Source: Staphylococcus phage RQ1
Sequence record: PV344601.1
Direction: 5' to 3' (one strand)
Length of the DNA: 64,000 nt
Part shown: piece after piece, positions 52,915 to 59,307 of the stretch
How positions within the stretch are numbered: the first letter of the stretch is position 1
Layout of the letters: the number at the start of each line of letters is the position of its first letter
The notes under the pieces: generated by a model
Told to the model about the DNA's origin: nothing
Seen by the model: only the letters and a program-made list of their open reading frames with translations
Databases searched by the model: none
Position numbers and translations under genes: made by a program

Positions 52915-54130
52915 TTTTCTTACAAAAAAACAGGGGGATACCCCCTAATCCCTACTCTCCCAAGGGTTTTAGCCGTTATATTGTACCCCGCCTATTTAAT
53001 TTTAGACCCCCCGACCCTCTTAATTATATTGTACGCTACCTATCCGTCTTAGATGGATTGTATAAAACAATGTTGTACACAACCTAATTACATGTAAAAA
53101 AATAACATTGTACACAACACACATCAATACAATACAGTTGTACACAATGCTTATGCATAACCTATTCAACCTACTTGCTCCCAACTGCCACAATCCACAC
53201 ACACGAACGCATATATACCTAACGCATGCAATAGCCTTATAGGTATTAGGTGTTAAGGTATAAGGTGTTAAGGTTATATATACATATGAACATACATGAT
53301 ACATACATCATACATACATCTAACAACTAACAAAGAAGATAAACAACTAACTAACTAACAACATCATTGATAACTAATACATAACTAATACATAACTAAT
53401 ACATTACATAACTAATCATTGATATACTTAATAGATATATATATAACTATCATTGATACAATACAATCATACACATTCAATACATATCATTCATGTACTA
53501 ATCACATACACAACACATACACATACAACATCATAGATACATATATCAATCATATACATACATACTATATACACCATTGATACATACATACACAGTACAT
53601 ACATATACACACACATTCATACTGTACACATACACATACAACAGACGCACACACAGACACATGAGCATACACACATGATACATCATACATACATCTATAT
53701 ACTTATACTATATCAATGTAATAGATACACACATACAAGATATAACATCATTGATACATGTATATACACATACACCAACACATACACATATAAGACTATA
53801 CACATGCATACATACATCTATACAGTACACACACATACACATACATGCTATGTACCTATACACATATACCATATGCATGCCCTTATCCCTATAGCCTACA
53901 GTACACACATATACATGCATACTATGTACACCCTTATATATGCATAGCATTATATATGCCATGTAGTATATGCCACTACCTTATATAGCACTACCTTATA
54001 TATAGACCCTTGTATACACCCATGCTATACGCACGCCACCTATATGCTACCCACTGTATTATATACCCTTATTATATAACTACCCTTTATATACGCCACT
54101 GTTATATATACTACCTTACATACTACACAC
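52915..54130. repeat. G-depleted (plus strand) low-complexity zone of degenerate CATA/ACAT, CATTGATAC and ACTACCTTATATA repeats
   Basis: Direct inspection: plus strand about 4% G. No credible ORF. Confidence 0.85.
52981..53148 (+). repeat. array of the TTGTACACAA motif: three perfect copies at 53075, 53109, 53139 plus degenerate ATTGTAC copies
   Basis: Direct inspection. Confidence 0.8.
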
Positions 54131-54360
54131 ATATATAAATAGACCACCATATAAGCATAGCCTTATAACTATATCCCGTATATGCCACACACAAGACGTA
54201 TATAAGAATATATACATGTAGGGTATTAATAGACCTATTATAATACAACGCTTTAATATGATGCCTTAAAATCGAACGTAGATATATAGACCGTAATAAA
54301 TAGCTTAATATACACACAACGACAAAAAGCCTACCCTATATAATAGAGTAGACCATTGTA

Positions 54361-54591
54361 TTAATAATATAATAAGTACGCCATTGATTGACGACCTATA
54401 AACCAAAATGCAAATGCCGTCCATATTCCAAATATGCCAATTAATTTATAACTCAATTCTGATAATGCCTTTACATCTCCTTTACTACCGTCCCCAAATT
54501 CCACACCCTCAATCTCAATAAGTGATGCATCAAATAACTTATAAATTCCATAGCTTGTAATTAGGTAAATCATTATATATAGTATTGTCAT
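54361..54591 (-). CDS. small membrane protein
   Basis: RBS context AAAGGAGTTTTAAAAATG. Confidence 0.7.
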   Translation of the reverse strand: MTILYIMIYLITSYGIYKLFDASLIEIEGVEFGDGSKGDVKALSELSYKLIGIFGIWTAFAFWFIGRQSMAYLLYY

Positions 54592-54616
54592 TTTTAAAAC
54601 TCCTTTTCTTTTTATG

Positions 54617-55111
54617 TTACTTATTTAATAGTTCGGCTATTTCTTTGTCATATTTTTCAATTCTTTTTTTTGTGTTATTGTAAGAGTTTTCTTTGCGTTT
54701 CAATTCTTCTTTTAGTTTTTCGATATCTTTTTCGTGGCACTCTAGCATATTTATTTCCATTCTTTTGAAACGTTGTAAATTATTATAACGTTGTGTTTTT
54801 GTTTCAGTGTATTTAACGTGCCTATCTACTTTCTTATCTAAAGCTTGAACAATGTTATCAAAGTCTAAATGCTTAAAATGTTTGTAATCCACCCGTAAAT
54901 TATGAGTGTTAACATATAACGCCGTTTGTCCCGTATAATCTTTTGATATTACAAAATCATAACCTTTGTATATTACATTTAAATATCCTTGAGAGCTTTC
55001 CTCTTTGTCTACAAGTTCGATATCATATTTCTTTATAAATCCTTGCACCCTTTTATCATTTGCATTTTTAACTTTTAATAATCTTAAAAAGTTTTTGTTA
55101 AAGTTATCCAT
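54617..55111 (-). CDS. hypothetical protein
   Basis: RBS AAGGAGG. Confidence 0.75.
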   Translation of the reverse strand: MDNFNKNFLRLLKVKNANDKRVQGFIKKYDIELVDKEESSQGYLNVIYKGYDFVISKDYTGQTALYVNTHNLRVDYKHFKHLDFDNIVQALDKKVDRHVKYTETKTQRYNNLQRFKRMEINMLECHEKDIEKLKEELKRKENSYNNTKKRIEKYDKEIAELLNK

Positions 55112-55124
55112 AATATTATCCTCC

Positions 55125-55418
55125 TTAATCTAAATCAATCGTTTTAACTTTCACTTTAAAATCTAAACTCATAGCGATATGTTTTAATTGTAGAAAGTTT
55201 TCACATTCTTTAATTTTTTTACGTATATTTATAAAGTGTCTCATTTCCTCCAAATATTCATCATGACTTAATATATATGTTTTGTAATTTTCAACGGTTT
55301 CAAATAATTCCCTTTTGAGATATCTCAAGGCGCTTTCTATAAATTCATCTTGATTAGTAGTGTGATAAATATATTCATTGTCCATATTTAAAAGATAGTA
55401 TATTTTTATGTTTTTCAT
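55125..55418 (-). CDS. hypothetical protein
   Basis: Start at MKNIKIYY, with the conserved leader AAAGGGAGTTTTCAAAATG. Confidence 0.65.
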   Translation of the reverse strand: MKNIKIYYLLNMDNEYIYHTTNQDEFIESALRYLKRELFETVENYKTYILSHDEYLEEMRHFINIRKKIKECENFLQLKHIAMSLDFKVKVKTIDLD

Positions 55419-55434
55419 TTTGAAAACTCCCTTT

Positions 55435-55695
55435 TTATATTCTTTTTGCTTTTCTAAATAGTTCGATTTGATATTCAATTTCTTTTTTTAAAACTTTACC
55501 CATTTTCTCATACGTTAAGCCCGTAACATGTTTGCCCGTTGTCATGAAATATAAATCGTACAACTTGCTAAACTCATTATATTTAAACCCGTATTGTAAT
55601 ACGCCCCAATCGTTAACGTATACATCGAACACATCCATATTGTTATGATTGCTTGATACATTGTTATATTCTTTTTTAAAATTTAAATCTGTCAT
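55435..55695 (-). CDS. hypothetical protein
   Basis: ORF with a GGAGTG RBS. Confidence 0.6.
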   Translation of the reverse strand: MTDLNFKKEYNNVSSNHNNMDVFDVYVNDWGVLQYGFKYNEFSKLYDLYFMTTGKHVTGLTYEKMGKVLKKEIEYQIELFRKAKRI

Positions 55696-55719
55696 TTTTT
55701 CATCACTCCATTAATTATT

Positions 55720-56193
55720 TTAAATACCAGATAATTCTTGCGCTACAATCTCAACTGCTAAGTTCACAAATTGAACTTTGTCAGTGTCTTGAATTTCTAA
55801 CTCTACAGAATCAAAACATTCAAAAATTATGTCTGTTTGCTCCCTTTCGTCCATATCTTCAAAGCCTTCTATTTCACTAGAGGCAATGTTTTCTGCTAGG
55901 TCGTACTCGATTTCGTGATAAGTATCTTCATGTTGAAATTTTACATTTGCATAGTTCTCAAGGTCTCTCATAAGCTCACAGTTTAACAAGTCATAATATT
56001 GGGCACCCGTTACTCCCTCTATATAATCAGTAATTACCTCTGTGATATCTTGCTCGTATCTGTCAAAGAAGTTAATAACGTCTGATGTGTAAATAAGTTC
56101 GCCAATTGCTCCGCTTTCCACTCCGTAAGTTGCTACGTCTCTTACTGTGCTTTCTTCCTCTGTTTGTAAAAATTGTTTAATTGTATTTTTCAT
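55720..56193 (-). CDS. highly acidic protein (DNA-mimic candidate), paralog of the 57368 gene
   Basis: Shared segment ATYGVESGAIGELIYTSDV. RBS AAAAGGAGAG. Confidence 0.7.
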   Translation of the reverse strand: MKNTIKQFLQTEEESTVRDVATYGVESGAIGELIYTSDVINFFDRYEQDITEVITDYIEGVTGAQYYDLLNCELMRDLENYANVKFQHEDTYHEIEYDLAENIASSEIEGFEDMDEREQTDIIFECFDSVELEIQDTDKVQFVNLAVEIVAQELSGI

Positions 56194-58060: not shown

Positions 58061-58152
58061 GTTATATCATTCCTTTTAGTTTGGTAGTGAGTTAATCACT
58101 CTATAGAGCCACCAGGTAAGCCCTGGTAGTTCTAACAATGATTAAATATGTT

Positions 58153-58389
58153 CTACACTAATTTCCAACCGATATCTGAAATGTATTCCTGCAGGTCTTC
58201 CATAGTCTCTGCAAATTTGATTGTCTGTAGAGTCTCAGAAGTAACGACAACCGCTTCTGTGTCATAGATTTTATTGTCTAGAATATTATTGTCTAAGTGG
58301 TCTATATATTCCCAAATTAGTGCTTGCTTGACACTTTCAAGTGTTACAATACTGATTACAATTTCATTTTCTTGATTTAACAGTTTCAT
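58153..58389 (-). CDS. hypothetical acidic protein
   Basis: Conserved leader AAAGGAGTTTTAAAAATG. Confidence 0.7.
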   Translation of the reverse strand: MKLLNQENEIVISIVTLESVKQALIWEYIDHLDNNILDNKIYDTEAVVVTSETLQTIKFAETMEDLQEYISDIGWKLV

Positions 58390-58470
58390 TTTTAAAACTC
58401 CTTTAAATTGTTTTTAATTACCTTACAAAATCTATTATACTACTTTGATTTTTAATTACAAGGGGCAATT

Positions 58471-58743
58471 TTACACCCAACCTATAAACCTTGTACCGTA
58501 TGCATTAACAGTATCTTCATAATTTGAAATTATGTTTATTAGGTCGTCAAATTGTTTTTTGATTTCCTCATTTTTCAGTTCATATTGATATAACATAGAT
58601 GTTACCATTAAAGCGTTCATATAGTCGCTTTCGTCAACCGTGTTCATAATGCTTTCAATTTCTTTAACTATCCATTGTTTAAGTAATTCCTTAGGTTGTT
58701 CATTTTTTGCCACTGTTCCGAAATCATCAATTATCATATACAT
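58471..58743 (-). CDS. hypothetical protein (start at MYMIIDD; the track's N-terminal extension through the GT-rich repeat is rejected)
   Basis: Conserved leader AAAGGAGTTTTACAAATG. Confidence 0.65.
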   Translation of the reverse strand: MYMIIDDFGTVAKNEQPKELLKQWIVKEIESIMNTVDESDYMNALMVTSMLYQYELKNEEIKKQFDDLINIISNYEDTVNAYGTRFIGWV

Positions 58744-58759
58744 TTGTAAAACTCCTTTA

Positions 58760-58855
58760 AATTTTATTTGTGCGCCTTGTGAGGTTAGCGCCTTGCGTTG
58801 CGTTTGAGGTTTGTTGCGTGGTTTGTATTTCGTTGTGTGTTTGTTGCGTTGTTTT
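58760..58855. repeat. GT-rich degenerate repeat (GTTGCGT / GTTTGTT units)
   Basis: Direct inspection. Confidence 0.6.
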
Positions 58856-58927
58856 CTTGACACTCATAATACTAAAGCATTACAAAACGAATTGCAAGCA
58901 TAAATTTATAAAATTAATGTTAAAAAC

Positions 58928-59150
58928 GCTTGAAACCGTTGGGGGAGTAAGTAAAAAAGTTTTTAAATTATTTTTAAGTGCTATTTTCTCCCTTTAAAAT
59001 GCATGTAGGCGCACGCATGCACGTACACACGTACGCGCGCGTATATGGAAGAAACACGATTTTACCAAATATTAGTTTTACTTACGGGGAGTAAGGCTCA
59101 AAGGCAATTTTGAAGATATTTTTTAAATTAATTTTCTGTGATTTTTAGGT
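58928..59150. repeat. two ~60-bp imperfect direct repeats (GGGGAGTAAG...TTTTTAAATTATTTTT) flanking an alternating purine-pyrimidine tract
   Basis: Direct inspection. Confidence 0.6.
59009..59047. other. 39-nt perfect alternating purine-pyrimidine GC-rich tract (Z-DNA-prone)
   Basis: GCGCACGCATGCACGTACACACGTACGCGCGCGTATATG. Confidence 0.8.
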
Positions 59151-59231
59151 CCGTGTTATAGTATATGTACAGTAAAAAAAGGAACAACAAAGAAACGCAT
59201 AACGAACTTTGAAAAGTGTATAAATATTATA

Positions 59232-59307
59232 TTGTGTATAACATTATTTTTATATTATAAGATTGTATTGTGTAAAATATAATGGTATATTAATGTATTG
59301 TGTACAA
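59232..59307 (+). repeat. array of TTGTGTACAA-like motifs (inverse complement of the 53 kb array) in a very AT-rich stretch
   Basis: Copies at 59232 (TTGTGTATAA), 59268 (TTGTGTAAAA) and 59298 (perfect). Confidence 0.75.

Follow-up and report, generated by a model that had tools for sequence, protein, structure and literature searches.

We identified, in a 64,000-nucleotide stretch of the genome of Staphylococcus phage RQ1 (PV344601.1; the whole stretch is called the window below), two arrays of the palindromic box TTGTAYACAA that delimit the early leftward 'host-takeover' transcription unit, one of them located just inside the cohesive end of the genome and the other in the AT-rich divergent early-promoter region. 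Our tentative interpretation, to which we give somewhat less than an even chance, is that the arrays are operator-type site clusters for a dimeric winged-helix regulator, possibly the host protein SarZ or MgrA, and that they modulate early transcription. Judged from its sequence, the window is that of a Sextaecvirus-like Staphylococcus siphovirus, kin of the ∼89-kb phages SA2 and PT1-4 (genus Sextaecvirus), and the phage type is virulent with a cohesive-end site (cos). Operator arrays are a known kind of element; their placement at the cohesive end and the early promoters of a virulent phage, the swap of the motif between lineages and the match to the consensus sites of two host regulators appear to be undescribed for the genus.

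Two box arrays around the early leftward unit

Four exact copies of TTGTACACAA are present in the 64 kb against 0.30 expected, all of them within the two arrays, and none of 100 shuffles reached four copies. Two more boxes of the right array, TTATACACAA and TTTTACACAA, are one mismatch away from TTGTACACAA and complete the right triplet (Table 1). One-mismatch copies in the whole window occur at the level of chance (10 versus 9.2 expected), yet six of the ten are found inside the two arrays. The start-to-start spacing of the boxes is 35 and 30 bp in the left array and 36 and 30 bp in the right array. The window boxes in full read (A/G)TTGTACACAA(C/T), both arrays have ATTGTRYA in common on the plus strand, and the similarity between copies stops at the box edges, the boxes being palindromes of 10-14 bp. 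The arrays bracket the whole leftward early transcription unit, including its G-poor non-coding stretch, and the left array is located immediately upstream of the leftward terminator.

The original prediction, made from the letters of this DNA alone, had described the arrays as flanking the leftward gene cluster, and in this it is borne out; the arrays are also non-random, as judged by the copy number, and conserved in SA2 and PT1-4. Its description of the left array holds for the three exact boxes; the additional copies that it called degenerate retain only the ATTGTA(C/T) half, and these half-boxes are surrounded by a block, TTAGACCCCCCGACC.TCTTAATTATATTGTA, that is invariant in three relatives. 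The inverted orientation that it proposed is visible in the central dinucleotide (AC versus GT) and in nothing else, since the outer TTGT and ACAA arms are palindromic. The 15% G+C content that it gave for the right array was confirmed (15.4% over 59225-59315), whereas the left array has 34%, above the window mean of 31.7%.

In the alignment of the window, SA2 and PT1-4, both array regions show 81-83% column identity, and invariant columns account for 52 of 72 box positions versus 74 of 145 spacer positions. All seven exact copies in the complete PT1-4 genome (88,645 bp) belong to the two arrays, four to one and three to the other in opposite orientation, with spacings of 30, 30 and 35 bp in the right array. 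Therefore, TTGTAYACAA is not a genome-wide word, and the genome-wide motif search proposed as a check on the original prediction came out in its favor.

The position of the left array is defined relative to cos. The ends of the 6ec genome were mapped experimentally and have a 10-nt 3' overhang, AAGCGCCCCC (PMC4125762), with which the 6ec sequence record also ends. Aligned to the window, both 6ec ends meet at AGGGGCGCTT, which is kept in SA2 and PT1-4 and occurs once in the window; 6ec-like and sciuri-type relatives likewise have cos ends according to PhageTerm (PMC8629997). By this alignment the cos of the window phage is probably located at AGGGGCGCTT, and the left array thus starts 87 bp from the physical genome end and extends to 262 bp from it. 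Between cos and the left array are a conserved T-tract, a terminator hairpin, which is invariant in the window, SA2 and PT1-4 and lies just outside the array, and conserved blocks. The element CCCTACTCTCCCAAGGG in this interval has related, inverted copies at 58939-58951 and 59084-59096 (TTGGGGGAGTAAG and ACGGGGAGTAAGG). A different structure, in which the bracketed 6.3 kb is a collapsed long terminal repeat with boundary repeats (Twort-like), was rejected given the alignment of the 10-nt cohesive ends of 6ec, and is also opposed by the PhageTerm calls for the relatives.

Separately from the arrays, a 9-bp inverted pair of the box word was observed at 32031-32061 (ATTGTACAC, a 13-nt spacer and GTGTACAAT), directly 5' of the ribosome-binding site of the tape-measure gene, after a hairpin at ∼32118-32150. 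The pair is absent from PT1-4 and is a candidate for a third operator or for an RNA hairpin.

Similarity to operators of bacterial regulators and occurrence in other phages

A scan of bacterial genomes for pairs of TTGTAYACAA returned at least 120 loci. Among 128 neighbor genes of the loci listed, the commonest regulators belong to the GntR family with an FCD domain (at least 10) and to the MarR family (at least 6), both winged-helix dimers, and at least three genes are Alp7A-like. The MarR cases are ohr-ohrR loci of Lysinibacillus or Solibacillus, in which intergenic boxes such as AAATTGTATACAATCT and GAATTGTACACAATTT are paired 30 bp apart; the phage boxes agree with these pairs in the core, the A/T flanks and the spacing. 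The ohrA operator of B. subtilis, TACAATTAAATTGTATACAATTAAATTGTA, contains AATTGTATACAATT (PMC2651793), and this dyad-symmetric core or a close variant is present in the boxes of the window, PT1-4 and the myovirus vB_SscM-1, the latter two having the form AATTGT(G/A)(T/C)ACAATT. Pairing at ∼30 bp or a 15-bp period was observed in the window (30, 35 and 36 bp), PT1-4 and a 13-kb IMG/VR contig (15 bp). At the level of sequence, the window motif, (A/G)ATTGT(A/G)(C/T)ACAAT(T/C) paired ∼30 bp apart, is indistinguishable from OhrR/MarR-type operators.

The OhrR operators of Bacillales (ohr/ohrA) and the phage boxes are alike in the core and flanks AATTGT-RY-ACAATT, in the 30-bp pairing and in a dyad symmetry suiting a winged-helix dimer. 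They are unlike in arrangement: the bacterial operators form one site pair at the promoter of one target gene with the regulator gene adjacent, whereas the phage arrays contain three to four or more sites each, lie at both ends of a 6.3-kb unit and off the strong core promoters, and have no regulator gene in the phage. A literature search with the motif string retrieved nothing relevant apart from OhrR operator oligonucleotides.

The closest staphylococcal homolog of the Lysinibacillus-type OhrR is SarZ (S. aureus, PDB 3HRM), which is 49-50% identical to it, has the identical recognition helix FLDSGTLTPLLKKLE and conserves the sensing cysteine; the Lysinibacillus Ohr protein itself had no staphylococcal match among the best 120. 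The window, the complete PT1-4 genome and the other phage loci were searched with the family hidden Markov model and phmmer, and no OhrR/MarR homolog was found (all E-values >0.1). Since no phage homolog is detectable and SarZ has the recognition helix of an OhrR that uses such sites, a host OhrR-family protein, SarZ or its paralog MgrA, is the predicted binder. Its occupancy of the arrays would modulate or insulate early transcription by repression, a roadblock or a boundary function; oxidation of the regulator would release it from the arrays, and early expression would thereby be coupled to the redox state of the host. Operators for a DNA-binding protein are also the best fit among the three functions offered by the original prediction.

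Several observations weigh against this interpretation. Pairs of TTGTAYACAA are not OhrR-specific, the GntR/FCD neighbors being as frequent and the neighbors sometimes being Alp7A-like. No staphylococcal locus is among the matches listed in the bacterial genome scan, and the region upstream of sarZ carries only a 12/14 box, AATTATAGACAATT. The arrays lie off the strong core promoters, 335-438 bp from the leftward promoter (P_left) and 98-173 bp from the first rightward promoter; only weak promoter-like matches (9/12) overlap the window boxes, that is, no operator was found over a strong core promoter. The corresponding element of 6ec retains only half of the palindrome, and a phage protein of unrecognized fold could be the binder.

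The motif differs between phage lineages and does so at both places. The k-mer common to the cos-proximal and divergent regions is TTGTACACA(A) in the window and PT1-4, TTGTATACA(A) in SA2, TTTTTATACAATA (a TATACAAT-type element) in 6ec, and AATTTTCAGAA / TTCAGAATATTC in F1 and DH5; the 6ec record has PHIRE repeats ('regulatory elements') annotated at both places. Both places thus switch motif together, with TTGTAYACAA in the window, PT1-4 and SA2, and therefore one protein, or one per lineage, must read both of them.

In the lineage of F1 and DH5, that of Mammaliicoccus sciuri and S. pseudintermedius, the motif resembles the site of another host regulator, CodY, with the consensus AATTTTCWGAAAATT (PMC10470025). 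At two mismatches or fewer, this consensus is matched 10 times in F1 (0.90 expected) and 7 times in DH5 (0.92 expected), and 9 of 10 and 6 of 7 matches, respectively, lie within the two regions. One extra CodY-like box is located in an intergenic gap of the leftward cluster (6735 in F1, 3915 in DH5). The window contains a single two-mismatch match to AATTTTCWGAAAATT, far from the arrays. The CodY boxes of Firmicutes, including Staphylococcus, are like the F1 and DH5 arrays, which occupy the same two positions with one or two mismatches to the consensus, and unlike the window arrays, where they have no match; clusters of three to eight boxes are also not their usual chromosomal arrangement. An equivalent role in the sister lineage could be played through these boxes with CodY as the binder. 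It can be speculated, though we regard the generalization as doubtful, that virulent Staphylococcus phages put look-alikes of host global regulator operators (OhrR-type or CodY) at both ends of the early block and sense the redox or nutrient state of the host through them, and that, as copies of the phage genome accumulate, the arrays titrate these regulators away as decoys, so that host regulons are derepressed. If SarZ or MgrA binds the window arrays and CodY those of the sister lineage, strictly lytic phages would wire their early program to host global regulators, or soak them up, and host physiology and mutations in sarZ, mgrA and codY could alter the efficacy of phage-therapy candidates in the genus.

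The IMG/VR database was scanned for two boxes 18-28 bp apart. Among the matches is vB_SscM-1, a Twortvirinae myovirus whose early region carries a gene annotated as terminal-repeat-encoded protein P and contains 27 ATTGTACACAAT boxes (at most one mismatch) versus 1.8 expected, at five or more promoter-associated or regulatory places. Two intergenic cassettes of ∼480 bp contain boxes on both sides of strong sigma-A promoters, and further boxes are found at the cluster end; TTGTACACAAT arrays flank strong early promoters, with distances to a strong promoter of roughly 40-65 bp for the upstream boxes and 25-80 bp for the downstream ones. Upstream of an early operon, boxes 30 bp apart are followed by CGTGTTTCTTCCATAT (L017, about 1385-1400), a word that is also present in the window between the right array and P_left (59044-59058, reverse complement). 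In the 13-kb contig L016, a strong early promoter is preceded at a distance of 150-250 bp by a 15-bp tandem array, AATTAAATTGTAC(A/G)CAATT, and in four other matches (L011, L012, L014 and L015) the neighbors were uninformative.

The boxes are present in the early regions of both siphoviruses and a myovirus and therefore belong to regulatory cassettes exchanged among Staphylococcus phages, which favors transcription factor sites and opposes a unique origin or a cos-specific signal. Whatever the binder, Sextaecvirus-like siphoviruses share a regulatory cassette with a Twortvirinae myovirus, which has it in the early region; in addition, a probable position in the window is given for the cos end of this phage type, and the boundaries of the terminal early segment are defined. 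A different repeated word was observed in S2G3, a 153-kb S. capitis myovirus, where TGTGGA/TGTCGG is followed by CTACTACT-type units (L018, 2340-3000) downstream of the homologous early promoter region, suggesting that Staphylococcus phages commonly have repeat sets specific to their lineage close to the early region.

Alternative binders and functions

In layout, the arrays resemble the OL and OR operators of phage lambda (CI looping), likewise two sets of about three dyad-symmetric operators, mutually inverted, that enclose a gene block lying between outward or divergent promoters. In lambda, a temperate phage, the operators overlap PL and PR at a distance of 2.4 kb from each other, and the repressor that binds them is the phage's own, whereas the window arrays belong to a virulent phage, are 6.2 kb apart, lie away from core promoters and have a predicted binder.

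The same operator role could be served by a phage early or middle protein of unrecognized fold, for example an early shut-off repressor, shared or exchanged among Staphylococcus phages; we consider this unlikely, if quite conceivable. The lineage-wise change of the motif at both places is what would be expected of a co-evolving protein-site pair, the motif moves with early-region cassettes between siphovirus and myovirus, and most early open reading frames (ORFs) are without known function. However, neither the window nor complete PT1-4 yielded a helix-turn-helix (HTH), MarR or GntR-like protein, HTH Pfam domains being absent from the scanned small ORFs of the window's early-type gene regions; no small protein common to all motif carriers was found; and the two motifs match two different host regulators, OhrR-type and CodY, too well.

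Individual phage candidates were rejected: the 161-aa ORF (59609-60094) is absent from PT1-4 despite the same motif, a 164-aa protein common with vB_SscM-1 is also absent from PT1-4, and the 83-aa ORF (60109-60360) is frameshifted relative to a 130-aa PT1-4 gene. NUMOD or homing-endonuclease-like proteins, one of the binders suggested originally, adjoin boxes in some phages, including vB_SscM-1 next to TTGTACACAA boxes (L017, 9659-10690; L019, 6939-8042), but they are mobile, and the suggestion is not supported, the NUMOD protein being a homing-endonuclease-like gene that lacks synteny in PT1-4. The other suggested binder, a sigma-like protein, fits weakly and is not supported.

Under a replication origin, the boxes would be iterons or DnaA-box variants and the 15% G+C stretch an unwinding element, perhaps at two origins; we hold this improbable. 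The arrays are conserved, the right array is located in the G+C-poor DNA that precedes the block of sigma-factor and replication genes, and the only perfect DnaA box in the 64 kb (TTATNCACA) is the box at 59233-59241, the other boxes being one mismatch off. The SPP1 origins oriL and oriR are an earlier example of a single protein that binds at two sites far apart, and iteron or initiator-box origins (lambda ori, plasmid iterons, SPP1) similarly have repeated protein-binding sites beside an AT-rich stretch. The window sites, in contrast, are short palindromes, not direct repeats of 17-22 bp, and the left array is not AT-rich. The PT1-4 replication region encodes a DnaB-like helicase, primase, Sak4 and RecJ, and its record annotates Pol III alpha; no initiator or replisome organizer was found among the ten proteins scanned, and the ORFs adjoining the right array are without initiator domains. 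The promoter-linked copies in vB_SscM-1 and the CodY-like boxes in place of the motif in F1 and DH5 also speak against an origin, and the local GC-skew turn in the window merely tracks the gene strand. DnaA boxes in the strict sense were rejected, as there is one perfect box only and the 6ec and F1 motifs do not fit. The iteron function of the original prediction is therefore not upheld, and the same applies to partition sites: ParA, ParB and ParM-type matches (Pfam, PHROG) are absent among the window ORFs scanned, and the phage is a virulent cos phage.

In lambda, cosB consists of three R sites beside cosN (R3-I1-R2-R1), and the left array is alike in having three repeated sites within ∼260 bp of the cohesive-end cleavage site. 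That it comprises cosB-like sites of the terminase or an accessory protein for recognition or processing of the cohesive end, with the right array secondary, has some appeal from its location 87-262 bp from the inferred cos, and is nevertheless highly improbable. The motif is not exclusive to cos, as it recurs in identical form at a distance of 6.3 kb and within the early region of a terminal-repeat myovirus, and the small terminase subunit (TerS) of the window is of the HK97/P27 type (Pfam Terminase_4). The binding site of HK97 TerS is a single 15-bp stretch that contains an A-tract, lies at +15 to +29 from cos and has no repeats (PMC11331095). The T-tract directly after cos fits such a site better and by analogy is a candidate binding site of an HK97-type small terminase; across the six aligned phages, TGTCTT does not vary and most of the remaining tract is conserved.

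There is only a very slight chance that the boxes are promoter elements of the phage sigma factor, from which middle or late transcription would enter the bracketed segment at both ends. Sigma-factor identity tracks the divergence of the motif (90% to the window in PT1-4, 65% in 6ec, 43% in F1 and DH5), and three of six boxes are preceded by TG, loosely like the Kayvirus late -10 motif TGTTATATTA (PMC7698491). On the other hand, the boxes are palindromic, have no second element at a fixed distance and no copies upstream of structural genes, and their 30-bp spacing would make the promoters overlap. The Kayvirus-type late motif was itself rejected, as it is not enriched in the window (24 versus 25.6 expected).

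Genome layout, promoters and neighboring elements

The features discussed above are listed with their neighbors in Table 1. The layout of gene blocks with both gaps was also found in SA2, PT1-4, F1 and DH5, and 6ec is its mirror image.

Table 1. Features of the window, and CodY-like arrays of two relatives, with positions and strands
Feature	Position	Strand	Remarks
Structural genes including HNH, Terminase_4/P27-type TerS and large terminase subunit (TerL)	up to 46.1 kb	-
Small-gene block	47.1-52.9 kb	+
Inferred cos cleavage region AGGGGCGCTT	52885-52894	+	Reverse complement of the 6ec overhang AAGCGCCCCC, one change
T-tract GTCTTTTTATTTTTAG	52895-52910	+	Directly after cos
Gene-free gap, 1.4 kb	after 52.9 kb, before the leftward block
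G+C-rich hairpin and T-run, intrinsic terminator of leftward transcription	52931-52947	-	Terminator scan
Element CCCTACTCTCCCAAGGG	52950-52966	+	Conserved in three close relatives
Half-boxes ATTGTACCCC, ATTGTACGCT, ATTGTATAAA	52981, 53029, 53058 (52981-53067)	+	Within highly conserved block
Left array, three exact TTGTACACAA boxes	53073, 53108, 53138 (span 53073-53147)	+	179-262 bp from cos
Non-coding stretch, 1.2 kb, degenerate repeats	53150-54330		G 8% on + strand; no long ORFs
Leftward block of small early-type genes, two DUF7222 proteins among them	54361-58743 (54.36-58.74 kb)	-	ORFs, PHROG, Pfam
Divergent region, 0.75 kb	between leftward and rightward blocks
P_left, sigma-A-type (TTGCAA, 17-bp spacer, TAGTAT)	58869-58897	-	Read from sequence
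Right array TTATACACAA, TTTTACACAA, TTGTACACAA	59232-59241, 59268-59277, 59298-59307	-
Hairpin AAGACTGACCTGAGACGGTCTT	59344-59365	+	Adjoins right array; invariant in three relatives
Three tandem rightward sigma-A-type promoters	59405-59432, 59473-59501, 59550-59578	+	Promoter scan
Rightward block: phage sigma factor first, thioredoxin, replication genes	beyond divergent region	+
Phage sigma factor	61041-62018		Rightward block
Near-consensus CodY-box arrays, F1 (L004)	3296-3421, 9205-9625
Near-consensus CodY-box arrays, DH5 (L003)	134-213, 7834-8087

The non-coding stretch next to the left array contains degenerate repeats of ACATACA, CATTGATAC and CCTTATATA types, three 11-bp tandem units ATAACTAATAC at 53370-53402 and a conserved G-containing island, GGTATTAGGTGTTAAGGTATAAGGTGTTAAGGT, at 53242-53274; G on the plus strand falls to 5% in 53290-53900. 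This skew suggests heavy leftward transcription or long single-stranded exposure. A comparable gene-free, repeat-rich stretch occupies the same position in SA2, PT1-4, F1, DH5 and 6ec, and the PT1-4 counterpart is full of TTGTAYACAA-like boxes.

Some genes of the leftward cluster have homologs annotated as terminal-repeat-encoded in myoviruses, and the cluster has DNA matches to Kayvirus-type phages and the 164-aa protein in common with vB_SscM-1. The cluster is presumably driven by P_left, which, with its leader, is conserved in other Staphylococcus phages, and the rightward promoters lead to the sigma-factor and replication genes. The leader (58744-58862, roughly 118 nt) is C/A-rich with repeated ACGCAA-type units, and the promoter segment 58870-58975 resembles several other Staphylococcus phages, 150-kb myoviruses among them. 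Between P_left and the right array, 59009-59058 comprises a G+C-rich tract of alternating purines and pyrimidines (GCGCACGCATGCACGTACACACGTACGCGCGCGTATAT) and, after it, TATGGAAGAAACACG; much of this sequence, chiefly its 3' half, is invariant in SA2 and PT1-4. At 59154-59163, TGTTATAGTA has 8 of 10 columns invariant in three relatives, agrees with the Kayvirus late -10 motif at 9 of 10 positions and is directed rightward, through the right array. Three copies of the repeat AAAAATC(C/G)G are present (59386-59530), one just upstream of each rightward promoter; two of these copies are followed by GGG(T/C)A(T/A)ATATA, and similar repeats occur in SA2, PT1-4, F1 and DH5.

Near cos, a strong sigma-A-type promoter directed toward it (52732-52760; TTGACA, 17-bp spacer, TATACT with TG) opens a short unit, 52732-52914, with a ribosome-binding site, a 41-codon ORF (52789-52914) and a hairpin with a T-run (52825-52851). 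The ORF crosses the inferred cos and is therefore intact only in circular or concatemeric DNA; an ORF at this position is kept in SA2, PT1-4 and 6ec, and the unit may specify a small RNA or a peptide. The window contains four paralogous homing-endonuclease-like or NUMOD-type genes (1885-3186, 9190-10431, 34944-35675 and 51609-52763), one of which ends ∼120 bp left of cos.

In the region 60109-60464, the 83-aa ORF is the counterpart of the N-terminal two thirds of the 130-aa PT1-4 protein, and the remainder is found in another frame (60366-60464); the sequence reads as a frameshifted gene or a sequencing error. No Rfam match was found in 46-60 kb of the window (none at the gathering threshold in 46487-46960). 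The latter stretch, in which a consensus promoter (46487-46515; TTGACA, 17-bp spacer, TATAAT) is followed by ∼450 nt without an ORF, separates the terminase/HNH block from the plus-strand small-gene block, and 6ec has a gap without genes at the equivalent position (L005, about 5060-5360).

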